A stretch of 47,285 nucleotides of DNA from Escherichia phage phiKP26, in the sequence record KC579452, one strand, 5' to 3'. This document shows positions 1 through 46,961 of this stretch, one piece after another. Below the pieces are notes generated by a model. That model was not told the origin of the DNA. It searched no databases and saw only the letters and a program-made list of their open reading frames with translations. Within the stretch, counting starts at the first letter, position 1. Every line of letters starts with the position of its first letter. The translations under genes were made by a program, and so were the position numbers.

Positions 1-65
1 TCGGTTACGCGTATATAAAATAGCACGATTTGCATAGACAACNAAGCCGAAAAATNNCGGGAGCC

Positions 66-446
66 CAAGTTGAAGTAAAATACGGTGTCGNAGTTAGCAG
101 GATTAGCCGCCATGGCTGGAATGGAGTGGTTGGCATTCGATCTCTATACGAGGCAATAGAAAAGGNCCAGCCATTCGTCGGGCGCGAAGGGATTATGCAT
201 GACCTGACAATTAAANNCATCCCANAAATACAAAAGAGGGGAATNGTTTGCCTCATTGGCGATAAGATTTATGTTCATCCGGCCCTGGTTGAGATGGATA
301 AGGACGACGTGCAAAACTGGTGCAGTCAGTGCCGATCCGACGTGCCACGCTCAAACTACGTGCCACCGCAAACAACAATCCATGGCTATAATGCCGATGA
401 GGTGGAGAAGGCCATACAGTTCTACCGGAAAGCGAAAGCTCTCCCG
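66..446. repeat. Direct repeat copy A (assembly overlap / terminal redundancy); near-identical to 46542-46922
   Basis: Base-by-base match to 46542-46922 at offset 46476; differences cluster at N-containing positions. ORF 30-473 is the repeat image of the C-terminal part of CDS 46389-46961. Confidence 0.85.
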
Positions 447-457
447 AATGGTGAATA

Positions 458-500
458 TAGCACAAATTGCTAAACAATAAATTGGGTAGTCAGCTATGAT
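458..500 (+). promoter_or_regulatory. palindrome/-10 promoter-like element (tagcacaaattgcta-N22-tatgat)
   Basis: Family member; upstream of CDS 531-761. Confidence 0.4.
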
Positions 501-530
501 TACCCTATCAACAACAAAGAGGAAATAACC

Positions 531-1324: not shown

Positions 1325-1576
1325 ATGAGCAAGTACAACCGACAGATTGTTGGGCTGAATGGTAAAGTAACAACCATTGATGTATATCGGGTTCTGGATG
1401 CATTCCAGGTAACTGACCCCGCAACTCAACACGCCATTAAGAAAATGCTTTGTAGTGGGTTGCGTGGGCACAAGGACTATTTAACAGACCTTGATGAAGC
1501 TATTGAGTCGCTTAATAAGGCTTATGAACTTCGAAAGCAGCGTGATGAGCTTGGATATGTTTATTTCAGTAAATAG
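1325..1576 (+). CDS. hypothetical early protein
   Basis: 83-aa ORF; stop TAA abuts the palindrome element at 1574. Confidence 0.45.
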   Translation: MSKYNRQIVGLNGKVTTIDVYRVLDAFQVTDPATQHAIKKMLCSGLRGHKDYLTDLDEAIESLNKAYELRKQRDELGYVYFSK

Positions 1577-1616
1577 CACAAATTGCTAAACATCCATCGC
1601 AAGGATGCGTTACCAT
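1574..1616 (+). promoter_or_regulatory. palindrome/-10 promoter-like element (weak -10 taccat)
   Basis: tagcacaaattgcta plus 22 nt; leader ...atcgaaattagacgaggaaag before a 42-aa ORF at 1650. Confidence 0.3.
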
Positions 1617-1773
1617 TACTTTATCGAAATTAGACGAGGAAAGATTAAATGTGTGGATATGATGAGTTGCCAAGTGAATGGTGTAAAAAANTGATGGATG
1701 AGGCTAAAGATGGGGATGAAGTAATGGCGTACTTTGAGTTGATGAACATGTGGCGCGAACGTGAGGAGAAGAA

Positions 1774-10634: not shown

Positions 10635-11582
10635 ATGACTATCAAACTTGACGCTTTCGAGCAAGAAAAGATCACTAACCACCTGCGAGCCATGGGCGTT
10701 GATAAGGCTGATGCAGCTGGTATCTGGACCGTGAAGCAGCTCACCGCAAGCCTGAATAAAGCTTACGAAACCGAGTACGACCAGAACTCCGTGGTAAACC
10801 TGTTCCCTGTAAGCAATGAAATTCCTGGCTACGCTAAGTACTTTGAGTATCCGGTATTTGATGGCGTTGGTATTGCTCAGATCGTGGCTGACTACACTGA
10901 TGACCTGCCGCTGGTTGATGCTTTGGCAACTGAACGTCAGGGTAAAGTTTNCCGTTNCGGTAACGCGTTCCTGATTTCCATTGATGAANTTAAAGTTGGT
11001 CAGGCTACCGGTCAGTCTCTGTCTACTCGCAAGCAGTCTCTTGCTTTCGAAGCTCATGACAAGCTGCTTGATAAACTGGTGTGGTCCGGCTCTACTGCTC
11101 ACGGCATCCCGAGTGTGTTCGACTACCCGAACATCAACAACGTTGTTAGCGGTGGTTCATGGTCTCAACCAACTACAGCAGTAAGCGATATTACAAGCCT
11201 GCTGGATATCATTGAGACTTCAACTAATGGTCAGCACCGTGCAACTCACCTGCTTCTGCCTACTACCGCCCGTCGTATTATGCAGAACCTGGTGCCTGGC
11301 ACTTCTGTTAGCTACGGTGAGTTCTTCCGTCAGAACAATAGCGGCGTAACCGTTGAGTTCGTTCAGTACCTGAATGATTACAATGGCACTGGTACCTCTG
11401 CAGCTATCGCTTACGAGAAAGACCCTAACAACATGGCAATCGAGATTCCGGAAGCGACTAACGCACTGCCGGCTCAGCCGCGCGACTTGCACTTCCGTGT
11501 TCCGGTAACTTCTAAAGCAACCGGTTTGATCGTGTTTAGGCCTTTAACTATGGCTGTCATGAAGGGCATTACTTTTGCTTAA
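10635..11582 (+). CDS. major capsid protein
   Basis: ~316 aa (MTIKLDAFEQEK...) with a strong upstream promoter and a terminator immediately downstream; head-module position. The ORF track start at 10596 is probably 5' UTR. Confidence 0.65.
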   Translation: MTIKLDAFEQEKITNHLRAMGVDKADAAGIWTVKQLTASLNKAYETEYDQNSVVNLFPVSNEIPGYAKYFEYPVFDGVGIAQIVADYTDDLPLVDALATERQGKVXRXGNAFLISIDEXKVGQATGQSLSTRKQSLAFEAHDKLLDKLVWSGSTAHGIPSVFDYPNINNVVSGGSWSQPTTAVSDITSLLDIIETSTNGQHRATHLLLPTTARRIMQNLVPGTSVSYGEFFRQNNSGVTVEFVQYLNDYNGTGTSAAIAYEKDPNNMAIEIPEATNALPAQPRDLHFRVPVTSKATGLIVFRPLTMAVMKGITFA

Positions 11583-11603
11583 TAGCACTTTTTGACAATG
11601 ACA

Positions 11604-18515: not shown

Positions 18516-18866
18516 ATGGCATTAGATACTTTTACATGGTGTACCCAAATTCAAGGTGGATCAGCAAACTTTACTAACGCGAATAACGTTAGGGTTGTTA
18601 GCTTTGGCAATGGCTACGAGCAGCGCGGAACCGGAGGTTACAGGACCAATAAGCGCACCTACAACATGACCTACACCAACACCAGCTGGAAGGAAGTGTT
18701 GGACTTCTGCTTTGCTCACATCATCACCCCGTTCGCATGGACAACTCCGCAGGGTGAGCTTAAGCTGTTTGTTGTAGCTCAGGACAGTATCAGCGTCACA
18801 CCAAACACCAAGGACGTGCAGACTGTATCAATGCAGTTTGTAGAAGTTTTCACATCTATGCAGTAA
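18516..18866 (+). CDS. minor tail protein (lambda gpM-like)
   Basis: 116-aa ORF directly after the tape measure gene; M-L-K-I-J order follows. Confidence 0.6.
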   Translation: MALDTFTWCTQIQGGSANFTNANNVRVVSFGNGYEQRGTGGYRTNKRTYNMTYTNTSWKEVLDFCFAHIITPFAWTTPQGELKLFVVAQDSISVTPNTKDVQTVSMQFVEVFTSMQ

Positions 18867-18867
18867 A

Positions 18868-18910
18868 TAGCACTAATTGCTAAACAGAAATACCAAGGAA
18901 GGTTTACAAT
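18868..18910 (+). promoter_or_regulatory. palindrome/-10 promoter-like element (tagcactaattgcta-N22-tacaat) inside the tail module
   Basis: Family member directly upstream of the moron-like ORF 18930-19154. Confidence 0.4.
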
Positions 18911-18929
18911 TAAAAANCTTAANCAAGAG

Positions 18930-19154
18930 GTGATTGATATGAAAATTAATTTGCTTTGCACAAATGCTGAAGTTGGTGTCTTTGATTTAAATGTTGGTCA
19001 AACTTATGTGGCATACTTCAATGATGATTATGGTCATTATGAACTTTCTGATGAAGGTTTTTCTTATGAGTTAAGCGAGGTTAGAGGTGCTCCTTTGACT
19101 TTCTACTGTAAATCTTTTAGTGGTGGATTGGTGACATTCATTAAAGTAANCTAA
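18930..19154 (+). CDS. hypothetical protein (moron-like insert in the tail-tip module)
   Basis: 74-aa ORF with its own palindrome/TACAAT element upstream, an RBS (aagaggtg) and a hairpin plus T-run downstream. Confidence 0.5.
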   Translation: MIDMKINLLCTNAEVGVFDLNVGQTYVAYFNDDYGHYELSDEGFSYELSEVRGAPLTFYCKSFSGGLVTFIKVX

Positions 19155-25960: not shown

Positions 25961-26010
25961 TTTGTATTCCTTAGTCAGTATGTTTCGTTTCGATGGAGTA
26001 ACTATAGCAA

Positions 26011-26054
26011 AGGCTTCTGCTGTAGTCTTTAGCAAATCGTGCTATTTTATATAC
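26011..26054 (-). promoter_or_regulatory. palindrome/-10 promoter-like element driving the lipoprotein operon
   Basis: Minus-strand reading: tagcacgatttgcta-N23-tatagt-tactccatcgaaacgaaa, then RBS and ATG at 25960. Confidence 0.45.
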
Positions 26055-26520
26055 GCGTAACCGATGTAACTCGATGTATACAATCTCATCCGCTGAAAAT
26101 TGTATACGCTTTTTACGCGAAGATACGCATTAGTTACATTTATAAATCCTTATATAATAAGGGTTTAGAGTATTATTATTATTATATATATTACTATGTA
26201 TATCTTGTAACTACTCTCTATAGCTATGTTGTTGTGTTTTACTAAAATACTATGTTTGATTTCCTGTTAAGGAGAAAATGCATATATATATAGATAGGGT
26301 GCAAATTTGGTGGATACATTGGTTACAAGGGTTACATTCAGCATTCATGCGGCGTACAGAGCATCAAAGCGTATTTATGTGAGTTTTACAGCTATATACA
26401 AAATAGCACGAATAATCAAAAAAAATGATTCCCGATTAATCACAGGGGAGTAAACAACTNAAGCGGTAATACTTGTGATGNATAAATTGGAACACAATTT
26501 ACAGGAATGAAAACANATCC
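26040..26520. promoter_or_regulatory. AT-rich non-coding switch region A (phased ACGC boxes, (TAT)5 tract, divergent promoters); candidate origin
   Basis: ~480 bp without credible ORFs between divergent operons; ACGC boxes at 26105/26116/26125; tattattattattat at 26171-26185; GGTTACA x2 near 26320; palindrome element at its left edge. Confidence 0.5.
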
Positions 26521-27451: not shown

Positions 27452-28420
27452 ATGAGCTTCAAGGTTTACACTAGCGACGAGTTAACCAACGAAGCCTACC
27501 ACAAGGAGTCAGACCATGTGTCTGGCTCTGGTCTGGCTCACATCTTCTCAACTTGCCCCGCTGCTTATAAGTTTGCAGAGCATGATGATAGCAATAAGGC
27601 TTTAAAGTTCGGTACATTAGCCCACACGGTTATTCTTGAAAACTCTGTATTCGATGCGACTTACTATCGCCAGCCAGCGCAAGAAGAGTTTGATGATCTG
27701 ATTACTAGCAAGACTGCTTTGGCAACTCGGTTGAAGTCGATGGGTATTGCTGGAACATCTGGTAAGGATTATCCAGAATTAATGGAGATTCTGGCGCTGA
27801 GCGGTGAATCACTTAACGTATGGTGGGATATTCAGCGCTCTAACGAGGTTAAAGCGAACGGTCGCGAGATTGTATCAGCTAAAGACTTTGACACAGTACA
27901 TGCGATGCGAGAGGTGCTGTGTGGCATTCCTGCATACAATGCGATAGTGAACAGTAAAACCGCTCAGCGAGAGTTATCAATCTTCGGTGAGATTAACGAG
28001 TGCGGCGTTAAGGTTCGTCTTGACCATGTCGATGTCGTTGATGATGTAGTTTATATCCGTGACTACAAGACGACTAGCGACGCATCTCCATCTGGATTTG
28101 GGAGATTGGCCTTCAAGCATGGTTACTTGCTAAAAATGGCGCTTCAGCATGATTTGTTTGTTCGCGCCTTTAATGAGAAGCGTCGAGTTGTTGTTCAGCT
28201 TCTTTGCCAGGAAANGAAAAGCCCATTCCTTCCAATGTGCTACACGATAACAAAAGAGCACTTAAAGGTTGGTAGATTGCAATACATGAGCGCCCTATCC
28301 ACATACAAGCAATGCAAGAAACTTGATATTTGGCCTGGTTACGGATTTGGCGAAACAGAGATGGAACTGCAAGTTCCTGAGTATGAGATGAAGAAGTACG
28401 AAGATAGCACGAATAGCTAA
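27452..28420 (+). CDS. PD-(D/E)xK family exonuclease (recombination exonuclease)
   Basis: 322 aa; D...VVDDVVYIRDYKTT motif characteristic of PD-(D/E)xK nucleases; immediately upstream of Erf. Confidence 0.6.
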   Translation: MSFKVYTSDELTNEAYHKESDHVSGSGLAHIFSTCPAAYKFAEHDDSNKALKFGTLAHTVILENSVFDATYYRQPAQEEFDDLITSKTALATRLKSMGIAGTSGKDYPELMEILALSGESLNVWWDIQRSNEVKANGREIVSAKDFDTVHAMREVLCGIPAYNAIVNSKTAQRELSIFGEINECGVKVRLDHVDVVDDVVYIRDYKTTSDASPSGFGRLAFKHGYLLKMALQHDLFVRAFNEKRRVVVQLLCQEXKSPFLPMCYTITKEHLKVGRLQYMSALSTYKQCKKLDIWPGYGFGETEMELQVPEYEMKKYEDSTNS

Positions 28421-28447
28421 AACGGTATTAAATTGATGGGGTATAGT
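28405..28447 (+). promoter_or_regulatory. palindrome/-10 promoter-like element (imperfect palindrome) upstream of erf
   Basis: tagcacgaatagcta-N22-tatagt-tacctcatcgacaacaaagagag; overlaps the exonuclease stop codon. Confidence 0.4.
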
Positions 28448-28476
28448 TACCTCATCGACAACAAAGAGAGATAGAA

Positions 28477-29632: not shown

Positions 29633-32348
29633 ATTGTGACGTTACATCACCATTCAAACTCAAAANTACTGATTGTTTNGTCAAATCAACACCACCTTTA
29701 AGCGAATAGTATCTTGAAGCGCAATAATCAGACTCATCTGAATAGCTGCCAACGTAAACACCAAAGCCATATCCAGAGCAAGCTACATCACCAGCGCCTT
29801 GACCTGAATACATGGTTACATAGTTACCAGCTGTTGTTAGTATAGGTCTGACATCAATATCTATATACTGAGAATCAAATGACCTTCTAACTCTAAATCC
29901 AGTATTCAGGTTTAAGATGCTCCACCAAACCTTACCAGATACATCAAAACCAAGAGCAATATTGTAAGTACCACCATTGACCATTCTTGATGAGACTGGC
30001 AACACACCTGATAAAACTCTTGTTTCACCTGATGCTGATATTAACAATGAGACACTGTGTTCTCCTGATGCCATCACGTTATACTGCAAGTAAAGAGCAT
30101 TACTATTAACTCCAAAACCAGTCCCTATAGCTATAAGGTTAAAGTCTTCAGCAACAGTTATGGTCGGCGATATATTGCATGTAGCGGTGAAACCTAGTGA
30201 CGGGTCAAATCCAGTGCATATAATCTTATCTTTATTTGCCTGTGAAAGCCTTAGCCAATATTGCTGCCCAACTGATGATGCCGCTGCGGCGAATACTGGT
30301 GTATTAGAGACCCCATCAAAAGCTGAAGTGTCGTTTGCTGGCTTAATTCTTGTCTTCCTTTTGTCTATCAGTCCGTTTATCTTCAGGTTTCCTGAATACT
30401 CAGCAACATAGTTAGTGTCCCCTGAGAAATTTGGGCCAAAGTAACCAGATTCAACAACCCCATCGATCACAACATCAGATCTTGAGTCAAGGAATCTGAA
30501 GTTGCCAGCGGAAGTTGGCCTTCCATCGCCATTGTTAGATACATAGTTAAGCCCAACAAAACCATAGATTCTTACAGAGCTATTTGAAAACGAAACGTTA
30601 TAATCTCTGTAGTTTGAGTTTATGCTGTTCCTGTTACTATTTAATCCATTAAATACCACATTTCTAGAGTTTACAATTCTAACACCGTCACCACCGCAAT
30701 CCTGCGCCTCTATAGCTGACATGGTGATGTTTTGGCAGTTATCAATCAGGATGCCATAAGCATCATCAAGCTCATTATAAGCCGACCAACCCGACCAAAT
30801 AAACTTACCGCCAACAATCCTACAGTTTCCGGCATTCCTAAGTATTAGACAATTTCTTCCACAGGTGTTTACCTGTATGTTATTCCATGTGAAGTCTGTT
30901 GTTTCGTTAATCAATCCGCCTTTTTTNATGTGCTGAATAAGAACATCATCAAGAACAGGAGAGTAGTTACCAGCAGCAACGAAAATTCCGTAAACATCAA
31001 ACCCAGCAATGTGAGTGTTTCTTATCGTTAAGTCCCTCCTAGGGTCAGCACCAGTGTTGAATGGGTAATTGGTTGATAACCCAGTCGGCGTAGGGATGTA
31101 AATCCCAGCAGTACCATCAGTAAACGCCGTGTCTTGCTGGGCTCCAGTGCCGTAAAGAGCAATACCTTCAATATGAATGAGCGAGCAAGAATCAGAAACC
31201 TCAATTAAAGAGCCAATTGATGAACTAAGCTGAGTTATTCTTGACTTGTGCTTGCCAAAACCAATTATAGAGCAAGATTTATTTCTCATTACCAGGTTTG
31301 ATGCCATGTAGTCGCTATCAAGCTTTAATGCCAGCCCGGAGTCTAGGATTTGCTGTATCTGTGTCGTTGAGTCTGATGTCGATGACTTAATGGCCCCAAG
31401 TTCGCAAGGCGACAGCTCCCCGCTACAGATTCTTTCCCAGTAATAACCTGTACTTGATTCAAAAACCAATCCTGAAGATAATCCATATGATAAAGATGAC
31501 TCCGGCTTACAAACAAAGAACCCACCACCATAACCAAGACCACCAATGTAAGAATCACAATAGACAACCTCTAAGTCATAAATTCTGGCAGAGTTTGTCA
31601 TTGCTGATACTGATTCAAACCTTCTTGTGTAATCCTGTTGAATCCAAAAACCAACTCCAATACCACCTGTAGACTGTGGTGATGAGTTTTGTGGTATGGA
31701 TTTTGGAACGCTACCAGACCAGTAATAAACCGAAACATGATTGTCATTAANGTAAATTGCAGGCTGAGTTCTTGAGTTTATTTCTCCACCATTTGAGAAA
31801 TCAACTACAAGAGCAGATGACACAGAAGCCGCAGCAGAGCTTGCTATTGTAGCTGAAGAGGAAGCCGAGTTAGCGCTACTTTCAGCTAACTGCCTATCAG
31901 AAGATACCTGATCTTTGTCAGAAGAAACTTGAGCAGCATCAACAGCAACTTGCTGAGATTGCATGTTGACATTATTTACGCTTTGCTGGAAAGAATCAGA
32001 ATCAAATTGATTAAAAGCATCAACTGCCGCTGCAACCTCTGTTTCACGGGACTGATAATAACGAAGTGTCTCAGCAACGTCCTGAGCAAGACCTTGGACA
32101 GTAATTCCGTCATGAGCAAGGATTGAGTACTGAGTCCCAGCTGGCGCAGTAAAACCTTTATCATTGAATACACGAATCTCTGTATCGCTTAAAATCTCAG
32201 CGATAGTAACAATGCTTGTCGGGGTGGTGTTAAAAATCATTGTTGCGCCAACTCGGATTAGCGTTAGTGGTTGCCTCCACGTGGTGCCAACACCAGTTAC
32301 AGTTCCGTCAGCTGCAAGCGATGCAGTTCCAGCGTCATAAATTGCCAT
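29631..32348 (-). CDS. tail fibre / tailspike protein with probable beta-helix (depolymerase-like) central domain
   Basis: ~905 aa; N-terminal fibre-anchor-like domain, Ser/Ala-rich linker, long Asn/Gly/Ser-rich repetitive beta region; stop placed at a TNA codon at 29631-29633. Confidence 0.65.
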
Positions 32349-32426: not shown

Positions 32427-33350
32427 CTATGAATGCTTATCTATCAGATCTTGCGGGTTATATAACCTTCTTTCAAGCCCCATCTTGAAATTGCCACCTT
32501 TAGGTATTACGACTTTTAGACCTCTATCATCAGCAACATAAAGCGACTCCTTTTCATCAGCTAAGCAAGCTATCCTGCACTCTTTATTCCTGAGTTCATA
32601 AGCAACCATTTCTAAGTTGTGGTGAGTTAGGCAGTCGTAAGTTGNCCTTTTTGTGCATGCCGATACATGTAGTGCGTTAATCCAGCCAACAGTGAGGTAG
32701 ATAGCGCCATCACTACATTTACTTACCGGAACAACCGAGCCGCGAGTGTAGTCTTTTGCGAGATATGACTCATTACCCTCTTCATCTATAAACTTTACGT
32801 TACAAGGCTCATCTGATAAACCATCCTCGTAAACCATAAAGCATTGCTCGGCTATAATTTCTTCTCCAGACCCCTTTATTCCTATTTTGTATTCCCGTTC
32901 AGTAATAATTGCTTCAAATCTCGTAAGCTGTGTCATTTCTACAGACTTGGTGCGAGAGATTACCTTCTCGATTGATTCAATGGATGCCTGAGCGCCAAAG
33001 TTATATCTCTGAACTCGGCTCGCTGCTTTGTTTGCCTTCACTATGATTTCGACGGGAGTCAAATTAAGCCAGTCGCCAAGTAAATTTATAGCTTCCACAA
33101 ATCTAAGGCCGGAACATTTCATAACCCAGCCTATTCCTGAGTCACTGCCGCACTTAGAGCAAACTGCGGCCCCATTACCTTTTTCGCTTCCTATTTCGTC
33201 TGTAAACCTGAATCTGTCAGTACCAAAGCAATAAGGGCACGGCCCGTGCTTCTTGCTAAGGTGTCTATCATTCCAACCAAGCTCCTTTGCATAAAATGAT
33301 TTCCACAATCCAGCCATTTTAGGTATTACTTCATTCTTGTCGTAATTCAT
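32427..33350 (-). CDS. DNA primase (zinc-ribbon plus TOPRIM-like)
   Basis: 307 aa; CPYC-x19-CSKC zinc-ribbon near the N-terminus; acidic TOPRIM-like segment; adjacent to the helicase region. Confidence 0.55.
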   Translation of the reverse strand: MNYDKNEVIPKMAGLWKSFYAKELGWNDRHLSKKHGPCPYCFGTDRFRFTDEIGSEKGNGAAVCSKCGSDSGIGWVMKCSGLRFVEAINLLGDWLNLTPVEIIVKANKAASRVQRYNFGAQASIESIEKVISRTKSVEMTQLTRFEAIITEREYKIGIKGSGEEIIAEQCFMVYEDGLSDEPCNVKFIDEEGNESYLAKDYTRGSVVPVSKCSDGAIYLTVGWINALHVSACTKRXTYDCLTHHNLEMVAYELRNKECRIACLADEKESLYVADDRGLKVVIPKGGNFKMGLERRLYNPQDLIDKHS

Positions 33351-33402
33351 TTTNATTTAATCCAATAAAAAGGTTGTACCGATTATGGCACAACCTTAAT
33401 TT

Positions 33403-33876
33403 TTACTCTTTAGCTTTTCGTGCTTCTTCTCTTTCTTTCTTAACCTTTCGCCATGATTTACGCTGCGGCTTGGTTGCTAACTCAGCTTCTGTAACAACTC
33501 GAAGCATCTGACGCTTCTTGCATCGCAGTGTTAGAGGCTTGCCGTTACCGTCGAACTGTAAATCAGGTCGGCAGAATGTAGCCCTGAACCCCTCGCCAGT
33601 TCGCTTATATCGATTATGCGCAAGCTGTGCGCCGCGAGCTGAAATCATTCCCCGCTTACACCATTCTTCTACAGCCTGGCGCGTAACCTTTAGCTGCTTA
33701 GCTAGATTGGCCTTGCTGCCGTAGAAGTCCAATACAATCTCAAGGCGCGCCCTTAATCCCGCTCTCACTTCATCCTTTAGTACATAGTAACCTGATGGAC
33801 GCTTACGCGGCTTCTTGTCTTCTGTGCGAATTGTTCCGTTGTTACCATTAAGAGTACGCTTGTCAATTGAATCCAT
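33403..33876 (-). CDS. Cro/YdaS-like HTH DNA-binding protein with basic N- and C-terminal tails
   Basis: 157 aa; LAKQLKVTRQAVEEWCKRGMI...CRPDL matches the YdaS/Cro-type HTH pattern; divergent from the helicase across an intergenic region holding the palindrome element. Confidence 0.55.
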   Translation of the reverse strand: MDSIDKRTLNGNNGTIRTEDKKPRKRPSGYYVLKDEVRAGLRARLEIVLDFYGSKANLAKQLKVTRQAVEEWCKRGMISARGAQLAHNRYKRTGEGFRATFCRPDLQFDGNGKPLTLRCKKRQMLRVVTEAELATKPQRKSWRKVKKEREEARKAKE

Positions 33877-33889
33877 TTTCTCACCTCAA

Positions 33890-33932
33890 TAGCACTTTTT
33901 GTTAAACATTGGTTTATATGGCTGTTATTATA
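33890..33932 (+). promoter_or_regulatory. palindrome element in the divergent HTH/helicase intergenic region
   Basis: tagcactttttgtta followed by an AT-rich -10-like tract and leader ...caatcgaacgaaca before the helicase ATG at 33969; the HTH gene starts 14 nt to the left on the other strand. Confidence 0.4.
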
Positions 33933-33968
33933 TCGTCAATCGAACGAACATTAAAGGCATTTGATATT

Positions 33969-35912
33969 ATGGAAAACCGATTGAAAACAATACAAAAACA
34001 GATTGAAGAATTGGGCGAAGATAAGATTAAAGAGATTCAAACTAAATTCACCTCTTCTAACTGTATGGTTCCGTATAGCTATCAGTGTGTTATGTACAAT
34101 GAGATTGCAAAGCGCATTAGTCGCTATGAGCATCCATTTATCGCAATGGCTTCAGTTTCTGCTGGTAAGACTCTGGTTTTTGGTATGGTTGCTAAGCGTT
34201 GCTCTGAGCTTGGCTTGCCTATGCTTGTTCTTGCTCGTCAGGCAGAGCTGGTTAGCCAGAATGCTTCTGAGATTTCTGATTACGGGGTTCCTAACTCCAT
34301 TTATTGCTCTGGGCTTGGAATAAANTCATCTTATTTCCCTGTGGTGGTTGGCTCTGAGGGCACAGTAGTTGGCGGGCTTAAGAAGTCACTTGGCGATTTC
34401 TGTCCTGCGGTAGTTGCTATTGATGAGTGTCACCATATTGATGACCAGGACATAGCGGAGGCAATTGATAACAATGAGACTGCGCAACAGGCATCAGATA
34501 AGGGGCGTAGCCAGTATACGGTCATCATCCTGACTTTAATGGAGCGCTGCCGTGCTAAGTATGGCAAGAATCTTCGTATCTTTGGACTGACTGGTTCTCC
34601 TTTCCGTGGAACTACGCCAATAGTTGTTGAAANCAAAANGGAGTTGGGATTTTGGCGTGAGACGGTCACAAATATCGATACAAACTACCTGGTAGAGTTC
34701 GGTTCCGTGGTTCCGACAAACTTTGGTGCTACTGATGGCGTTGGTTACGACCTGTCAGAGTTTGATGCATCATCTGAAGATGGTGTTCAGGATTACACTA
34801 AAGCCCAGCTTGAAGCCATGGATAAAAAGATTCAGGCATCTGGAACAATGACAGCGGAGATAATGAAGAAAGTATGGCTTGCCGCGAAAGACAGGAATGG
34901 AGTTCTGGTAACATGCGCAGGTGAGCGCCATTGCCACGAAGCCGCAAGTTACCTTCCTGAAGGTGAAAAGTTCTGCATTATAACTGGAAAGACTGGCGAG
35001 AAGCAGCGCAAGGAGTTGCTTGATAAGTGCTTTAGCGGGGAGATTAAATATTGCTTTCAGGTTCAGGCGCTAACCACTGGCGTAAATGTGCCTACATGGG
35101 ATACAAGCGTTATTCTGCGTAAGATCGGTAGCCTTACGCTCCTGGTTCAGCTACTTGGTCGAGGAATGCGTAAGCTTAAGAAGCTCCATGAAGATAAAGG
35201 AATGGTAAAGAATGACCATTTGGTACTGGACTTCGCAGGAACGATGGACTCTATGGCATCATTGTACTTCAATCCAATTCTTGAGCAGGCTCAATATCAG
35301 CTACGAAAGAGTAATGGCAAGGAGACTAAGCAGTGTCCAGTATGCGGAACAGAGAACAGCTTCTTTGCTCGACGTTGCATGCATATTGATGAGAATAATA
35401 ATCGCTGCGAATATTTCTGGGTTAGTCGCACATGTGAAGACCAGAAAGACCCACGAACCGGAAAGGTTATCGTTAAAGGCTGTGGAGTTCAGAATGACGT
35501 TGCAGCTAAGATTTGTAGGGGTTGCGATTGCACTTTGCTTGATCCAAATCTCAACTTAAGCGGCAAACATTACCGCAAGAACGACTGGTTTGATGTTGTT
35601 GACTTTAAGGTTGGGCTAACAAAGAACCAATCAGGAATCATCTACAACTACATCCTTGATGATGGCATGGGTGGGACATTCAAAGCTCATGAGGTTTTCT
35701 TTGTAGAGTCTGGCCATCGAGTATGTAAAACGCTCTGGTTGAACAATGGAATTAAAGGTCACGTAGTCGACATGAACGCTAAGCGATATATGGCTGCATA
35801 TCGCAATGCTCGCAAGATTATGGAGTATGCGCAGTACATCCATGCCCCTAAGAGGGTAACTCACCGCAAGACCGCTAAAGGTGGCGATAATATTGCTAAT
35901 AAGGAGTTCTAA
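33969..35912 (+). CDS. SF2 DEAD/DEAH-box helicase with C-terminal zinc ribbon
   Basis: Walker A SAGKTLV, DECHH box, C-terminal CPVCG...CxxC cluster; the track start at 33909 is probably leader, ATG at 33969 follows the RBS. Confidence 0.75.
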   Translation: MENRLKTIQKQIEELGEDKIKEIQTKFTSSNCMVPYSYQCVMYNEIAKRISRYEHPFIAMASVSAGKTLVFGMVAKRCSELGLPMLVLARQAELVSQNASEISDYGVPNSIYCSGLGIXSSYFPVVVGSEGTVVGGLKKSLGDFCPAVVAIDECHHIDDQDIAEAIDNNETAQQASDKGRSQYTVIILTLMERCRAKYGKNLRIFGLTGSPFRGTTPIVVEXKXELGFWRETVTNIDTNYLVEFGSVVPTNFGATDGVGYDLSEFDASSEDGVQDYTKAQLEAMDKKIQASGTMTAEIMKKVWLAAKDRNGVLVTCAGERHCHEAASYLPEGEKFCIITGKTGEKQRKELLDKCFSGEIKYCFQVQALTTGVNVPTWDTSVILRKIGSLTLLVQLLGRGMRKLKKLHEDKGMVKNDHLVLDFAGTMDSMASLYFNPILEQAQYQLRKSNGKETKQCPVCGTENSFFARRCMHIDENNNRCEYFWVSRTCEDQKDPRTGKVIVKGCGVQNDVAAKICRGCDCTLLDPNLNLSGKHYRKNDWFDVVDFKVGLTKNQSGIIYNYILDDGMGGTFKAHEVFFVESGHRVCKTLWLNNGIKGHVVDMNAKRYMAAYRNARKIMEYAQYIHAPKRVTHRKTAKGGDNIANKEF

Positions 35913-36301
35913 TGGTTAAGGTTTTTCACGACAAAACAAGCACGGACAAGGCTAAAGAGGTTGTTCACCAAATAAATTCAATAGCTTGGGTTCGCCACAA
36001 CCATCCAGAGATATTTGCTTTTCACGTGAAGAATGAAGGTCTCAAGTCTATCGGCACAGCAATGAAGGACAAGCAGGAGGGAGTAATTAAGGGTGTATCA
36101 GATATTCTACTGATTGGACCAAATGGCTTTGCCGCAATAGAGCTTAAGCGAGCAATAAAATCAGATAGCAAGGTTTCAAAGGAGCAAAAGGAGTTCCTGG
36201 AAAAGGTATCAGAAACAGGAGGTTACGCAGCAATCTGTTATGGGTTTGAAATGTTTAAGTTGGCAATTACAGATTATCTATCAAATAGCACGAATTGCTA
36301 A
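35912..36301 (+). CDS. VRR-NUC domain nuclease
   Basis: 129 aa; ...SDILLIGPNGFAAIELKR... resembles the PD-(D/E)xK VRR-NUC core; stop codon lies inside the palindrome element. Confidence 0.55.
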   Translation: MVKVFHDKTSTDKAKEVVHQINSIAWVRHNHPEIFAFHVKNEGLKSIGTAMKDKQEGVIKGVSDILLIGPNGFAAIELKRAIKSDSKVSKEQKEFLEKVSETGGYAAICYGFEMFKLAITDYLSNSTNC

Positions 36302-36328
36302 AGAGATTTCGCAAGGATGCGATATAGT
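36286..36328 (+). promoter_or_regulatory. palindrome/-10 promoter-like element (best consensus copy)
   Basis: tagcacgaattgcta-N22-tatagt-tacttcatcgaaacgaagagag, then ATG at 36360. Confidence 0.45.
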
Positions 36329-36359
36329 TACTTCATCGAAACGAAGAGAGAGAAACAAA

Positions 36360-36554: not shown

Positions 36555-36772
36555 TGAAATTAACCTTTGATAAGCAATGGGAACTCTTTCAGGCAATGGT
36601 GGCGCAGGAGTTGAGTAAAGCTGGATATAAAAATGATGTTTGGGATTTAGCTTGGTGTCTTGATTATAGTTTCGAAGAGGATTATCTGAACACTGATATC
36701 GAAACATGGCGCGACCGAATGATTGCTGATATCGAAGAAATGAAGAAAGATTGCCCGGAGGATTTTTCATGA
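36554..36772 (+). CDS. hypothetical protein
   Basis: 72-aa ORF overlapping its neighbours by ATGA. Confidence 0.4.
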   Translation: MKLTFDKQWELFQAMVAQELSKAGYKNDVWDLAWCLDYSFEEDYLNTDIETWRDRMIADIEEMKKDCPEDFS

Positions 36773-37405: not shown

Positions 37406-37659
37406 ATTTACCTGGTCTGGATTTTGATGAGAGTAAGTATCAGGTTGTGTTTTTTGGTGAGAAGCCTTATCGGAAGATTCCTTTCTCTGAGTGGATTCCT
37501 CCGGACTACCTCGATGTACTGGTGCAAATTGAGATTGGTAAGGCTGAGTTGATGTACTACTCACCTGGCTGCAATATGATGATGCCTAGTGAGTATTCTC
37601 CAGCAATTGCTGCGCTTGAAACTGAGTTTCTTGATTACTGGCTAAAAGANGTTAAATAG
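37402..37659 (+). CDS. hypothetical protein
   Basis: 85-aa ORF; ATGA overlap upstream; stop at a palindrome element. Confidence 0.4.
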   Translation: MNLPGLDFDESKYQVVFFGEKPYRKIPFSEWIPPDYLDVLVQIEIGKAELMYYSPGCNMMMPSEYSPAIAALETEFLDYWLKXVK

Positions 37660-37699
37660 CACTTTTNGTTAAAACACATCGCCATGGATGGCGTATAGT
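37657..37699 (+). promoter_or_regulatory. palindrome/-10 promoter-like element
   Basis: tagcacttttNgtta-N22-tatagt-gtgttcatcgaaacgagag; upstream of a 22-aa hydrophobic ORF and the phosphoesterase gene. Confidence 0.4.
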
Positions 37700-37810
37700 G
37701 TGTTCATCGAAACGAGAGACGATTCAGATGAAAACATTACTACCGTTGATGGCTATGCCATTAACCTTTATAATCATGTACTTCATAATCTGCTAACAGG
37801 AAATTAAATA

Positions 37811-39022: not shown

Positions 39023-39214
39023 ATGACTTGCGGAAATATTGAGATGAATTGGTTCAAGAAAGAAATCAAATGGAAAGAAATGTTAAGCATAAAGAGGAAG
39101 GTGGGGATGGGGATAACAGGAGTTATTNATTATAGTGAGTGTTTCAACGACGCGGTATTGGCAAGGANGAAAGCTGAATCTGAATACTCATTTCATGAAA
39201 ATCACGGAAANTAG
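39023..39214 (+). CDS. hypothetical protein
   Basis: 63-aa ORF; Ns within. Confidence 0.3.
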   Translation: MTCGNIEMNWFKKEIKWKEMLSIKRKVGMGITGVIXYSECFNDAVLARXKAESEYSFHENHGX

Positions 39215-39254
39215 CACGAATTGCTAAAACACAAATCAAAAGATGGGGTATATT
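39212..39254 (+). promoter_or_regulatory. palindrome/-10 promoter-like element
   Basis: tagcacgaattgcta-N22-tatatt-tactccatcaaa...; upstream of CDS 39288-39473. Confidence 0.4.
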
Positions 39255-39287
39255 TACTCCATCAAANCAAANCGAGAGGATACAAAG

Positions 39288-42989: not shown

Positions 42990-43241
42990 CTCTCTCTAAA
43001 TGCCCCCGAAGGGGCTTGATTATTTACTTGATACGAACTTCAATCATCTGACCTTTATGAGGAAGATACAGCTTTGCGCGACCTCTAATCATTACGGTGA
43101 TGATATTCTCCTTAAGGTCAACGTGAAGTACTTTGCGGAACAGTGGCCCCATTTTTACCATCATGCCAGGTTTGATGTTTTCGATAGTAGTCATGATATC
43201 CATTTTTTAGCCCTTTTAATGTATTTCGTTTCGATGAAGAG

Positions 43242-43285
43242 AATATATCAATTTTTGTTGTTAAGGTCTTTAGCAAAAAGTGCCA
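43242..43285 (-). promoter_or_regulatory. palindrome/-10 promoter-like element (minus strand)
   Basis: Minus reading: tggcactttttgcta-N23-tatatt-ctcttcatcgaaacgaaa, then a 59-aa ORF starting near 43200. Confidence 0.4.
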
Positions 43286-43439
43286 TTAAAGACCAACCAG
43301 ACATTTGCCAACTACAACAGCGATTGCGCCCATGAAGCCAAAGAANCCAAACTTAATTACTTGTTCCATTACCGCATCAACTGCTTTAGAGATGTTTTTC
43401 ATTTTGTTCACCTTAGTGTTTGTCTTCTTGATGGAAACA

Positions 43440-43483
43440 AATATACCCGCCGAAGCGGGTAGTGTCATTAGCAAAAAGTGCTA
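43440..43483 (-). promoter_or_regulatory. palindrome/-10 promoter-like element with embedded GC hairpin (minus strand)
   Basis: Minus reading: tagcactttttgcta, spacer containing cccgc-ttcg-gcggg, then tatatt; small membrane ORF downstream. Confidence 0.4.
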
Positions 43484-43678
43484 TTAATTAAAACCTTTCG
43501 CCAGATGATAGCTTATTACTAGGCATTTTATCTATGAAAGTTTCAAGCAACCATTTTCTAGTAATGAAATCAACCACGCAAAAATAGCCTCTATCTTTGC
43601 AGTATCTGTACTTAGTGCCGTGTTGTATAGACTTGCAATAAATTGAATCTTTTGTTATGTAAATTCTTACTGTCTCAT

Positions 43679-44360: not shown

Positions 44361-44394
44361 CTTCGTGATTCTTTAGTTTCGTTTCGATGAGATG

Positions 44395-44437
44395 AATATA
44401 CAATAAAAGCCCCGAAGGGCTTTAGCAATTCGTGCTA
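44395..44437 (-). promoter_or_regulatory. palindrome/-10 promoter-like element with embedded terminator hairpin (minus strand)
   Basis: Minus reading: tagcacgaattgcta, spacer aaagccc-ttcg-gggcttt, then tatatt-catctcatcgaaacgaaa; upstream of CDS 44058-44360. Confidence 0.45.
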
Positions 44438-44587
44438 TTNCTTTGCTGCTTTTGCAATTGCCTTCTGGACGATGTTGAAGCTCTCAATCAAATCTTCTTT
44501 GAAGTAGTCACCAACAGGCCAACCCTTACCGCTGTACTTGGCTATGGTTTCTAGATCGTAATAGTTCAAGTCAGATGGCTTTAGCAT

Positions 44588-45201: not shown

Positions 45202-45228
45202 ATCTATCTCCTCGTTGTTGATGAGTTT

Positions 45229-45272
45229 ACTATAGCCTTGCCATCCCCATTTGTCTTTAGCAAAAAGTGCTA
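45229..45272 (-). promoter_or_regulatory. palindrome/-10 promoter-like element (minus strand), first promoter of the leftward operon from region B
   Basis: Minus reading: tagcactttttgcta-N23-tatagt-aaactcatcaacaacgaggag, then ATG at 45201. Confidence 0.45.
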
Positions 45273-45289
45273 TTCGTCAGATTTATGGA

Positions 45290-45870
45290 TTGTTGCAGGC
45301 ATTGCGATGATTAGCATGACTATTACACATAAAGCAATATTTCATCGATTGCAATGATTTTCTGGACTGTTGCGAATTTATCAATGATTGATGGATTGAT
45401 GGAATGAAGTGAGGGTTGTATCAACTAGTTGGTTGGTTTTAGCTTTCACAAGGAGCTTTCCTTTATGTACGCGTTATGGCTTGTTCAACCGTGTAGAGAA
45501 ATTGCCATATTTACGCCATCCACGCCAGTTTACGCGCTGGTTACAAANTAAATCCCTTATATAACAACCATTTAGATTTATTATTATTATTATTATTATA
45601 TATGTTATTCCGTAACCATGATTATCTGAGATATTGGTGATATTTTTTGATATTGCGCGGCGCATAAAGATTTAGATAAAGAGATAGGGATGCAAGCGGG
45701 GTGGCGAAAATGGCTTAACATACCATAACGGCAATAACAGCCTTGATACGACTAGCGTCAGCATGTAACAATTTAGCATAACGTGCGATTACCGAGTTGA
45801 ACGTGTAAATAACGCTTGCGACATTCACCAATCATGGTAAGATGCTCTCACACCAAACGAGAGGAGTAGT
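45290..45870. promoter_or_regulatory. AT-rich non-coding switch region B, paralogous to 26040-26520 (phased ACGC boxes, (TTA)6 tract); candidate origin
   Basis: ACGC boxes at 45513/45522/45532; ttattattattattattat at 45578-45596 with flanks similar to 26141-26215; tandem gattgatgg x2 near 45390; no credible ORF. Confidence 0.5.
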
Positions 45871-45873
45871 AAA

Positions 45874-46389
45874 ATGAGTAATACAATTCGTGAAGCAAAC
45901 CCGACACTTGGCGACCTGGTGCGGCACCTTGTTAAGATGGCTCTTAATTCAGAGGATGGAAGCGTAACAGTTCCCGTTAAGTTGCTTTACAAGAATCTTT
46001 ACGGAGAAATTGATAACGACTATGTAGCAGCTGACTTTAGACCTGGCGGCAAATATTCACTTCCAAAGCTTAAGGCTTCCTATGTTTCAAATACAGCCAG
46101 CAGAATGCAGGAAGTTAAAGACGCAGATAAGCGCGCAAGGTTCTCTTGTGGAGAGATGGAGTATAATGGTGATGAGCATTATTGCGTAAAAATCACAATG
46201 GTCAACGGTGCTGTTAAGAATGGAACCCGAGCTAAGACAAACAGTCAATTAGAGGAGAAAGCGGTAAGCGAGTTTAAAGCTAGGCTACTTAAGCTTTCCC
46301 CNAGCGTAGCAGGAATGAGTGGAGATGAACTGAAGGGTGCGGTAGCTATGATTAACGCATATCAGGAAATGATTAAGGAGACTAAATAA
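45874..46389 (+). CDS. hypothetical protein
   Basis: 171-aa ORF with a strong RBS (gagaggag); first rightward gene after region B. Confidence 0.5.
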   Translation: MSNTIREANPTLGDLVRHLVKMALNSEDGSVTVPVKLLYKNLYGEIDNDYVAADFRPGGKYSLPKLKASYVSNTASRMQEVKDADKRARFSCGEMEYNGDEHYCVKITMVNGAVKNGTRAKTNSQLEEKAVSEFKARLLKLSXSVAGMSGDELKGAVAMINAYQEMIKETK

Positions 46390-46961
46390 TGTTTGATTTC
46401 AACGAGGATAAGTTAACTGATGACCAGGTGATGGAAGTCGCCAGGCAAGATAACCTGCCGCCACTTCGTGTGGCAATCAGTACTAATGGATACCGCCAAT
46501 CATTCAATTTCTGGCCCAGCGCCGAAGAGATGCTGTGCGTCAAGTTGAGCTACAAATACGGTGTCGTAGTTAGCAGGATTAGCCGCCATGGCTGGAATGG
46601 AGTGGTTGGCATTCGATCTCTATACGAGGCAATNCGAAATGTCCAGCCATTCGTCGGGCGCGAAGGGATTATGCATGACCTGACAATTAACATCATCCCA
46701 GAACTACAAGAGNCGGGAATTGTTNGCCTCATTGGCGATAAGATTTATGTTCATCCGGCCCTGGTTGAGATGGATAAGGACGACGTGCAAAACTGGTGCA
46801 GTCAGTGCCGATCCGACGTGCCACGCTCAAACTACGTGCCACCGCAAACAACAATCCATGGCTATAATGCCGATGAGGTGGAGAAGGCCATACAGTTCTA
46901 CCGGAAAGCGAAAGCTCTCCGAAAGGGGAAATTTAAAAAAAATGAACCATCTATCAATTAA
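46389..46961 (+). CDS. short paralogue of the 529-aa P-loop protein, lacking the ATPase core; 3' end runs into low-quality sequence
   Basis: N-terminus MFDFNEDKLTDDQVMEVARQDNLPPLRVAISTNGYRQS matches the N-terminus of 41400-42989; a later block (VVGIRSLYEA...LIGDKIYVHPAL) matches its C-terminus. In the cleaner repeat copy the ORF ends at 473. Confidence 0.5.
   Translation: MFDFNEDKLTDDQVMEVARQDNLPPLRVAISTNGYRQSFNFWPSAEEMLCVKLSYKYGVVVSRISRHGWNGVVGIRSLYEAXRNVQPFVGREGIMHDLTINIIPELQEXGIVXLIGDKIYVHPALVEMDKDDVQNWCSQCRSDVPRSNYVPPQTTIHGYNADEVEKAIQFYRKAKALRKGKFKKNEPSIN
46542..46922. repeat. Direct repeat copy B (matches 66-446)
   Basis: Same as copy A; after 46922 the sequence degrades instead of continuing as 447 onward. 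Confidence 0.85.

Follow-up and report, generated by a model that had tools for sequence, protein, structure and literature searches.

The window analysed here, the whole stretch of 47,285 nucleotides (nt) of Escherichia phage phiKP26 (sequence record KC579452), carries, between a primase gene and an SF2 helicase gene, a gene for a small helix-turn-helix (HTH) protein, hereafter called the regulator, and, in the intergenic region separating it from the helicase, one copy of a 15-bp box that recurs along the genome. This gene, the boxes and the identity of the protein that reads them are the subject of the present report. The segment 32400-36400 is 99.8% identical to the Escherichia phages phiJLA23 and C119 (Rogunavirus, Drexlerviridae), and by its sequence the window is assigned to Rogunavirus, i.e. 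to a T1-like virulent siphovirus of the family Drexlerviridae. The genes and elements of the locus are as follows:

32427..33350, minus strand: primase gene (Zn_Ribbon_Prim), downstream of the regulator gene, from the open reading frame (ORF) and domain matches
33403..33876, minus strand: regulator gene, 157 amino acids (aa), start codon ATG at 33876
33880..33887, minus strand: Shine-Dalgarno sequence of the regulator, GAGGTGAG, read directly from the sequence
33889..33908, plus strand: box upstream of the helicase promoter, ATAGCACTTTTTGTTAAACA, from a motif search; the 15-mer at 33892-33906 is GCACTTTTTGTTAAA
33969..35912, plus strand: divergent SF2 helicase gene (ResIII/Helicase_C), from the ORF and domain matches

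The ORF 33403-33876 was shown to be a genuine core gene of T1-like phages, its product being an HTH protein of the Cro type that carries an N-terminal arm peculiar to the family. The gene product matches PHROG 2856 along its entire length (E-value 1.7e-85), has homologues in 829 phage records and is labelled "transcriptional regulator" in all relatives; the gene order is the primase downstream on the same strand and the helicase divergent, and the position between these two is fixed in all lineages examined. The full-length family is small: of 1.84 billion cluster representatives, 24 belong to it at E<=1e-10, and the shorter relatives of about 100 aa retain helix 1, the HTH and the motif FCRPDL, the arm being absent. 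The coordinates and neighbours given in the first-pass annotation of this DNA (157 aa, start at 33876, divergent from the helicase) check out, the helicase ATG being at 33969, as do the highly basic tails it ascribed to a protein carrying LAKQLKVTRQAVEEWCKRGMI and CRPDL, the N- and C-terminal tails both being basic. It should be pointed out that the regulator gene and the repeats are both already known, the former being annotated and the latter described in phage TLS. As regards the neighbouring gene, the helicase start in the C119 RefSeq record is equivalent to 33918, i.e. within the predicted promoter, and AKS96 together with the conserved leader favour ATG 33969. Among the homologues of the regulator, 20 "Campylobacter phage" records (A121, A139 etc.; MG065670, MG065681 and 18 more; 47-50 kb) carry it at 68% identity; they are probably T1-like coliphage contaminants or records with a wrongly assigned host.

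Concerning the boxes, 14 occurrences of the motif TAGCA-N5-TGCTA with at most one mismatch were counted in the window, a number attained in none of the shuffles, the expectation being 2.2. The first-pass annotation had noticed a palindrome 14 bp from the regulator start; there is indeed a box there and the motif is enriched, but the copy at 33890-33904, TAGCACTTTTTGTTA, is a palindrome with one mismatch, and the box, rather than standing alone, forms the 5' portion of a directional module. This module, about 60 bp long, consists of aaaTAGCAC-NNN-TTG(C/T)TAAA, a gap of 19-21 nt, a -10-like hexamer (TATTAT, TATAGT, TATATT and TATAAT being among those found), the leader yCATCGAAACGAA, a Shine-Dalgarno sequence and a start codon. 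A search with the module profile found 14 good copies in the window, including those ahead of the helicase, Erf, phosphoesterase, lysis and many small genes, with a further one within the tail block. The module is also present in T1, Klebsiella phage Sweeny, Vibrio phage Vc1, two metagenomic relatives and the L007/Logan contig, as well as in every Drexlerviridae genome examined. In addition to the copy ahead of the helicase, the module profile places the following copies in the window:

456..518, plus strand: module with the box GCACAAATTGCTAAA, a gap of 20 nt and TATGAT
1571..1635, plus strand: module
18865..18930, plus strand: module within the tail-gene block
25983..26047, minus strand: module upstream of lipoprotein and membrane-protein genes
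28403..28465, plus strand: module upstream of the Erf gene, its box with two mismatches
36283..36345, plus strand: module over the VRR-NUC stop codon
36968..37030, plus strand: module, TGTTA variant
37654..37717, plus strand: module, TGTTA variant, upstream of the phosphoesterase gene
39210..39272, plus strand: module upstream of small genes and the lysis cassette
43224..43287, minus strand: module
43421..43486, minus strand: module with a terminator-like hairpin in the spacer
44376..44440, minus strand: module with a terminator-like hairpin in the spacer
45214..45274, minus strand: module

The window contains 149 scattered N bases, giving X residues in several ORFs, and two boxes are hit by them (36981 and 37667), so that the motif scores of these two boxes are artificially lowered.

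The box matches the marbox, the site of the MarA/SoxS/Rob activators of enteric bacteria, whose published consensus, derived from chromatin immunoprecipitation sequencing (ChIP-seq), is 5'-GCAHWWWWTGYYAAA-3' and is bound by MarA as a monomer in a defined orientation. With at most one mismatch allowed, the window contains 16 matches to this consensus, against 1.57 expected and never more than 5 in 100 shuffles; six of the copies match perfectly, that of the helicase at 33892-33906 among them. By a position weight matrix built from 70 Salmonella ChIP-seq sites for MarA/SoxS/Rob/RamA, nine boxes of the window lie at or above the 98th percentile of those 70 sites and three score above the best chromosomal site. 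Matches to the consensus reach 3.4-4.5 per 10 kb in the window, T1 and Sweeny, whereas the control, a 24-kb locus of the unrelated enteric siphovirus Sf11 with a distant homologue of the HTH core, has 0.41 per 10 kb, which equals the background. The marbox of the E. coli mar promoter also reads TAGCA-N5-TGGCA, and the apparent palindrome is seen because the marbox consensus itself (AY-n-GCA...TG-Y-Y-A) yields it.

In class II marbox promoters, the box lies in forward orientation over the -35 position and the -35 hexamer is characteristically absent; in the E. coli class II promoter micF, with its known start site, the gap between the box and the -10 hexamer was measured as 20 nt, i.e. the same as in most of the phage modules. 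The geometry was followed in 59 modules from seven genomes, these being the 59 of 75 consensus matches with a -10 hexamer at 19-21 nt; since the set was picked with the marbox consensus itself, a part of the invariance observed in it is there by construction, although the same window copies had been recovered independently by the palindrome-based and the module profile searches. The box is in the forward orientation in all 59, of which 44 have a gap of 20 nt, nine one of 19 and six one of 21. The left-hand G is present in 59/59, whereas its right-hand partner is split between C (40) and T (19); the bases at positions 6 and 10, C and T, are not complementary to each other, and the flanks read AA...AA rather than TT...AA. 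The conserved positions are thus asymmetric and do not fit a symmetric dimer. No -35 hexamer is evident in the modules, the mean best match to TTGACA being 3.0/6 versus 2.5/6 at random. At the level of sequence, the boxes therefore are class II marboxes in their letters, asymmetry, forward orientation and spacing.

The boxes are the same element as the repeats of phage TLS, for which 21 copies of a 21-nt direct repeat, aaATAGCACnnnTTGnTAAAA, occurring also in T1, Rtp and Rogue1, have been described, oriented with transcription and located about 76 nt upstream of start codons (Phage 2024, PMC11447400). The function was left open in that study, a stoperator, an enhancer and an UP element being considered, and neither a fixed -10, a leader, a marbox match nor a binding protein was given (PMC11447400). 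In the literature searched, which did not cover subscription journals, nothing was met that links marboxes, Rob or MarA to T1-like phages or that reads the repeats as marboxes; the same holds for a description of the regulator/helicase interlock presented below, and a literature search for Drexlerviridae transcriptomes yielded nothing relevant.

The regulator and the helicase are divergently transcribed, and the elements predicted between their start codons are the following:

33926..33931, plus strand: predicted helicase -10, TATTAT, 19 nt past the 15-mer box, with a predicted start near 33938
33927..33932, minus strand: predicted regulator -10, TATAAT, offset by 1 bp from the helicase -10, with a predicted start near 33920
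33937..33949, plus strand: beginning of the helicase leader, CAATCGAACGAAC (family consensus yCATCGAAACGAA), from the module alignment
33949..33954, minus strand: predicted regulator -35, TTAATG, with a 16-nt spacer, the best minus-strand sigma70 match; the promoter is annotated in AKS96

The two opposed -10 hexamers, TATTAT(+) at 33926-33931 and TATAAT(-) at 33932-33927, share base pairs, and the starts predicted from the sequence (33938 and 33920) are about 18 bp apart. As the hexamers are shared, the two would form one pseudo-symmetric bidirectional promoter that holds the polymerase in only one orientation at a time. The box falls within the predicted 5' untranslated region (5'UTR) of the regulator, at about +15 to +29. 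The suggestion that the promoter of the regulator has to overlap the box does not hold for the predicted promoter, with its -35 at 33954-33949 and its -10 at 33932-33927, and the overlap lies instead in the -10 shared with the helicase; of the autoregulatory layout proposed on the same grounds, what stands is a real interlock with the helicase promoter that can give feedback, but there is no need for the regulator to bind the box. Equivalents of the regulator promoter were found in T1 (TTGAAT-17-TATAAT), Sweeny (TTGTCA-16-TATAAT), ENA50k (TTTAAA-16-TATAAT) and L007 (TTGATG-16-TATAAT), the bidirectional layout being seen in at least five of the seven lineages, with a similar one by eye in JGI51k and no clear case in Vc1. 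In phage TLS, P57 is among only three sigma70-type promoters found, gp57 being the regulator (PMC11447400). Among pseudo-symmetric bidirectional promoters of E. coli, 18 bp is the commonest start separation, and activating one direction represses the other via polymerase competition; the DNA-bound activator does not block elongation (PMC12825309). No convincing operator was recognised in the regulator/helicase intergenic region, the 8-mers it shares with other candidate early-promoter and non-coding regions being unconvincing, and an Rfam scan of 33200-34200 gave no match.

A related arrangement is found at the 3' end of the regulator gene:

33409..33423, minus strand: degenerate box, GCACGAAAAGCTAAA, with two mismatches to the marbox consensus, over the last six regulator codons (A-R-K-A-K-E*)
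33370..33397, minus strand: terminator hairpin after the regulator gene, its loop holding a -10-like CATAAT 21 nt past the degenerate box

The degenerate box is proposed to be the upstream element of a weak primase promoter, which would in effect be embedded in the terminator, just upstream of the primase gene. The arrangement of box and terminator is kept in T1 at 35992(-), in Sweeny at 36565(-) and in TLS (DR10). Judging from the alignment, the C-termini differ within the family (ARKAKE, NSIFS) because of the overlap with the box, and a part of the basic C-terminal tail of the regulator thus owes its sequence to the DNA box lying over its codons.

Turning to the protein, the regulator reaches 24.3 bits with each of the Pfam families P22_Cro and YdaS (PF14549, PF15943), i.e. 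under the gathering cut-offs of 30.2 and 30, and some of its homologues have precomputed PF15943 or PF14549 matches; a scan of NCBIfam gave nothing beyond weak matches to DicC and to the "carph-isopro" HTH. The AlphaFold model, made with 32 homologues, has a mean per-residue confidence (pLDDT) of 88.6 and five helices within residues 35-102 (residues ~35-52, 55-62, 66-75, 80-93 and 99-102, forming the HTH core), the first 20 residues being of low confidence; an N-terminal strand (31-33) may lie beside a C-terminal one (125-127). In the Protein Data Bank (PDB), Foldseek ranks highest two all-alpha Cro proteins, those of Xfaso-1 and N15 (target-normalised TM-score 0.69-0.73, probability 0.96-1.00, E-value ~0.02), and a profile search of the PDB sequences returned the same Cro proteins and P22 Cro (E-values 0.03-0.04). 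According to the model, the core is an all-alpha, lambda-repressor-like five-helix HTH fold of the Cro/P22-Cro type, in agreement with the Cro/YdaS-type HTH with unusual extensions recognised at first reading, the model, the Foldseek matches and the sub-cut-off Pfam matches all pointing the same way. Parts of a temperate switch, i.e. a repressor, an integrase and an immunity region, are absent from the window genome, the divergent neighbour being the helicase.

The conservation within the regulator family is, however, strongest away from the HTH. In the alignment of 32 sequences, the arm DKRxxNGNNGTxRGxDKK is invariant (D5, R7, N10-G14, R17, D20 and R24) and the C-terminal stretch GFRAxFCRPDLxFDxNGK is conserved, with invariant residues in helix 1 (E36, A39, L41, R44) and in the C-terminal motif (G96, A99, R103, D105, F108, G112), whereas the HTH helices (55-74) contain no invariant or nearly invariant position. 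The arm, predicted to be disordered (pLDDT 51-61), is conserved at the level of the protein, since its codons vary synonymously between the homologues. The recognition helix reads TRQAVEEW in the window, SNQTVQGW in T1 and SIQVVQQW in Sweeny; the two metagenomic relatives have SVGTVQQW and THGAVRWW, Vc1 has CCVRLTNAY and L007 has NPLEYREM. The same box is found in every one of these phages.

These two sets of observations bear directly on the reader of the boxes. In Cro/CI-type proteins, the positions of the recognition helix are those that contact bases; as they vary here, a conventional HTH reading of a site invariant in 12 of its 15 bp is unlikely. The recognition helix being the least conserved part while the box is unchanged even in the Vibrio phage, a host activator of the MarA/SoxS/Rob type is the likelier binder, and there is about an even chance, judged from the sequences, that the reader is such a monomeric AraC-family protein of the host—Rob, MarA or SoxS, or RamA in Klebsiella and Salmonella. 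A phage-encoded AraC-type reader was considered and set aside: a profile made from MarA, SoxS and the N-terminal domain of Rob, run against the six-frame ORFs of the window, T1, Sweeny and a 20-kb locus of Vc1, gave a best match of only E 0.14, so none was found in the four phage sequences scanned. Several other explanations of the box were also rejected on inspection. For a sigma54 promoter, TAGCAC-N3-TTGCTA compared with TGGCAC-N5-TTGC is 2 bp short in spacing and has AG for GG, and a sigma70 -10 stands at a fixed distance; TTGCTA taken as a -35 would leave a spacer of 22-23 nt to the -10, too long for sigma70; an extended -10 inside the box (TGcTAAAAc) lacks the essential T at -7; and the analogy with the T4 MotA box and the -10 motifs of sigma32 or sigma28 do not fit in position or motif. 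The N-terminal HTH of the phosphoesterase, which the first-pass annotation had offered as the alternative reader, has a GerE match below threshold (E 0.038) and its own gene lies behind a module; it is a weaker candidate than either the host activator or the regulator.

Based on the above results, the following scheme is proposed. The host sigma70 RNA polymerase would transcribe the regulator early from TTAATG-16-TATAAT, the transcript ending at its own terminator, after which Rob, MarA or SoxS of the host would read the boxes and drive the helicase promoter and about 13 others. The box 14 bp from the start codon of the regulator would be the upstream activator site of the helicase promoter, and the firing of this promoter would shut off synthesis of the regulator by polymerase competition. 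The regulator itself would bind a separate, lineage-specific DNA target through its variable recognition helix—the weakest step of the scheme—with the shared promoter core, other early promoters or lineage-specific repeats in two AT-rich non-coding regions as candidate targets, and it would act as a local or early brake, like AcrR at the PacrA/acrR promoter. A more far-reaching reading, given a probability of roughly 0.4, is that the virulent T1-family phages hand nearly all of their non-early transcription to Rob/MarA/SoxS via 15-20 very strong class II marboxes, and that the regulator, with its invariant disordered arm, controls this circuit, either as a brake resembling AcrR at the bidirectional helicase/regulator promoter or by mobilising or stabilising the activators.

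Several points weigh against the proposed scheme. The regulator is the sole annotated DNA-binding protein conserved family-wide, it is early and its gene stands beside a box; its invariant arm and its C-terminal motif might provide a non-canonical mode of DNA recognition, and a 15-bp site with 5-bp half-sites 10 bp apart also plausibly fits a Cro-type operator. MarA and SoxS are scarce in unstressed cells, and T1-like phages grow well in ordinary broth. Rob is reportedly largely aggregated under ordinary growth conditions, so with all three activators thus limited in broth, one encoded by the phage would be more robust. The scheme also presupposes a MarA/Rob homologue in the hosts of Vc1 and of the two metagenomic relatives. 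The role of an AcrR-like brake is its weakest inference, drawn by analogy only, with no convincing operator in the intergenic region.

The direct competitor, and the reading favoured in the first-pass annotation, is that the regulator binds the boxes itself, either as a dimer on TAGCA-N5-TGCTA or through the arm and the C-terminal motif, and that from about -42 it activates some 14 promoters devoid of a -35 while blocking its own transcript, with negative autoregulation as the result. It is a core gene present wherever the boxes are, its promoter is one of the few of the sigma70 type, with a box in its own predicted 5'UTR, and the centre of the box at about -42 is the classic spot for contact with sigma region 4, near which the activators lambda cI at PRM and Mu Mor/C at their targets are bound; since the regulator is most strongly conserved away from the HTH, it might conceivably read DNA with another, unconventional part. 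This reading is nevertheless considered unlikely, and the regulator no longer appears to be the most plausible reader: its recognition helix is almost wholly replaced between lineages with an identical box, the conserved positions of the box show asymmetry, the dyad is lost in the common TGTTA variant, which suits the Y of the marbox consensus, and this consensus already gives the whole palindrome. At the other extreme, the boxes might not be activator sites at all but UP-like elements, stoperator-like roadblocks or signals at the RNA level, options suggested for TLS (PMC11447400). Some boxes do lack a correctly spaced -10 (T1 8365 at the terS ribosome-binding site and window 45772-45786), and hairpins accompany most modules; this is nonetheless very improbable indeed in view of the 59 of 75 consensus matches standing at a fixed 19-21 nt from a -10, of a sequence that is not A/T-rich like an UP element, and of the virulent nature of these phages, which have no repressor/immunity system, stoperators belonging to the temperate phage L5.

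Two further possibilities concern what the regulator does. Rather than a transcription factor, it might be a replication or origin-binding factor acting, with the flanking helicase and primase, on lineage-specific iterons in the two AT-rich non-coding regions. Its place between the helicase and primase genes, which is kept in every lineage examined, would be accounted for, and the lineage-specific repeats that cluster in the non-coding regions of Sweeny and T1 would suit, being variable, a variable helix; but iteron enrichment in the window is weak, the iterons are not tied to the regulator, the covariation spans too few lineages, and other DNA-binding proteins, e.g. a Rha-like one, are encoded beside the non-coding regions, which makes this role rather improbable. 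Little credence is likewise given to an action mainly by protein contact, in which the disordered arm would dock on a conserved host partner, such as RNA polymerase, Rob/MarA/SoxS or Lon, and increase or tune marbox-dependent transcription. A motif, DKRxxNGNNGTxRG, that is invariant in the protein while its codons vary, disordered and absent from the shorter relatives has the pattern typical of a short linear motif for a conserved partner, although such a partner is hypothetical and the folded core is a DNA-binding fold.

Returning to the proposal of host activators acting at phage marboxes, its nearest known parallel is formed by the class II promoters of MarA/SoxS/Rob(/RamA), e.g. micF, with the same 15-bp box, asymmetry, forward orientation over the -35, 20-nt gap and sigma70 -10, and no -35. 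The phage modules differ from these in lying on a virulent genome, at about 14-20 per 48 kb and with scores near or above those of the best chromosomal sites, and in having, in addition, a leader that is conserved and a hairpin within or about the spacer; the binding of a host factor to them is inferred from sequence. For the bidirectional part, the E. coli promoter PacrA/acrR (Warman et al., NAR 2026, PMC12825309), the best-studied of its kind, is comparable; it has a shared pseudo-symmetric -10, as is predicted for the phage, and one direction dependent on a marbox activator, while the other direction encodes a small HTH regulator and is lowered, via polymerase competition, upon activation by SoxS/MarA (PMC12825309). 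The differences are that the acrA marbox is outside the class II position and that AcrR is a TetR-family auto-repressor with a known operator, whereas the phage regulator is Cro-like and the phage starts are predicted.

Compared with the all-alpha Cro proteins (Xfaso-1 Cro, 3BD1; N15 Cro, 2HIN/6ON0; P22 Cro, 1RZS), the regulator has the same fold of the HTH core with a weak sequence match, and Pfam scores below cut-off; it is, however, about 2.5 times larger, with the invariant 30-residue arm and with an FCRPDL C-terminal extension that may pair, in the model, with the N-terminal strand, and it has no partner repressor or lysogeny switch. Mu Mor and C as well as lambda cII are phage activators of promoters without a -35. 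If the regulator were the reader, it would resemble them as a small early HTH protein near -40 that turns on later promoters; no homology of the regulator to Mu Mor/C or lambda cII was detected, and their sites vary with the protein, whereas the phage box is invariant while the helix varies.

T1 is a classic T phage whose transcription timing has been a puzzle, and the marbox reading turns the unexplained TLS repeats into a directly testable matter. If true, it would tie the T1-like phages of E. coli, Klebsiella and Shigella, known as therapeutic agents and as contaminants, to the intrinsic antibiotic-resistance regulon, with consequences for phage-antibiotic combination, and the mar/sox/rob state of the host (bile, salicylate, oxidants, clinical marR mutations) would set their growth. 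It also shifts the search for the target of the regulator from the boxes to the shared bidirectional promoter, other early promoters and the lineage-specific repeats.

Further features accompany the modules. A stable hairpin is present between the box and about +14 in most of them, the folding z-score being below -2 in 40/59 (mean -2.9), and it is the structure that is conserved, because the stem sequences differ between copies. One type is a GC-rich, terminator-like stem with a tetraloop that ends right at the -10, the T-rich -10 doubling as U-tract, and in the other the stem arms bracket the -10, e.g. GGGGTTgcgaTATAGTAACCCC; examples are found in the window at 39229-39268, 43421-43466 and 44376-44420 and in T1 (L003) at 2287-2325. 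The hairpins might terminate the upstream transcript or protect its 3' end, serve in RNase processing, or affect promoter opening.

Boxes outside the modules were also seen. In T1 (L003 8363-8395), a perfect box lies 15 nt upstream of the terS start, over the ribosome-binding site, with no correctly spaced -10, and in the window a box at 45772-45786(-), again with no correctly spaced -10, stands about 30 bp upstream of the gp58 promoter and faces away from it. A TTGACA variant at 11582-11600, likewise with no correctly spaced -10, follows the major capsid gene, beside a terminator. Such boxes may be relics or have another role, e.g. repression or class I activation. A 43-nt inverted repeat of 93% identity (window 1-42 versus 26022-26064) includes a box and its upstream flank, TTACGCGTATATAAAATAGCACGATTTGC; its copy at the window start has no TGCTAAA end and no module downstream.

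The gp58 promoter itself, upstream of gp58 (DUF7174), is of the sigma70 type (TTGCGA-16-TAAGAT, 45817-45845(+)); its leader, CACACCAAACGAGAGGAG, resembles the module leader, the class II box being absent, and it is likely the counterpart of the TLS early promoter P01. In T1, at 30323-30378, TTGACT...TATAAT followed by CATCGTAAACGAAGGAG is found upstream of the exonuclease VIII gene.

With regard to the remaining non-coding DNA, the two long AT-rich non-coding regions of the window, 26045-26520 and 45273-45872, contain (TAT)n-like runs at 26177-26200 and 45578-45604 and the short repeats GTTAC/GTAAC, TTACGC and GATTGATGGATTGATG. Lineage-specific repeats cluster in the non-coding regions of the relatives (13 of the 16 copies of GTAAGAT in 2.5% of the Sweeny genome; six of six copies of TGTAACA in T1), the enrichment of iterons in those of the window being weak; the two regions could be replication origins or operator arrays of early promoters. 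Finally, a direct repeat of 391 nt with 94% identity joins window positions 66-455 and 46541-46930, which does not amount to an exact terminal redundancy, and the ORF 30..473 duplicates, in diverged form, the C-terminal portion of gp59 (46389..46961).

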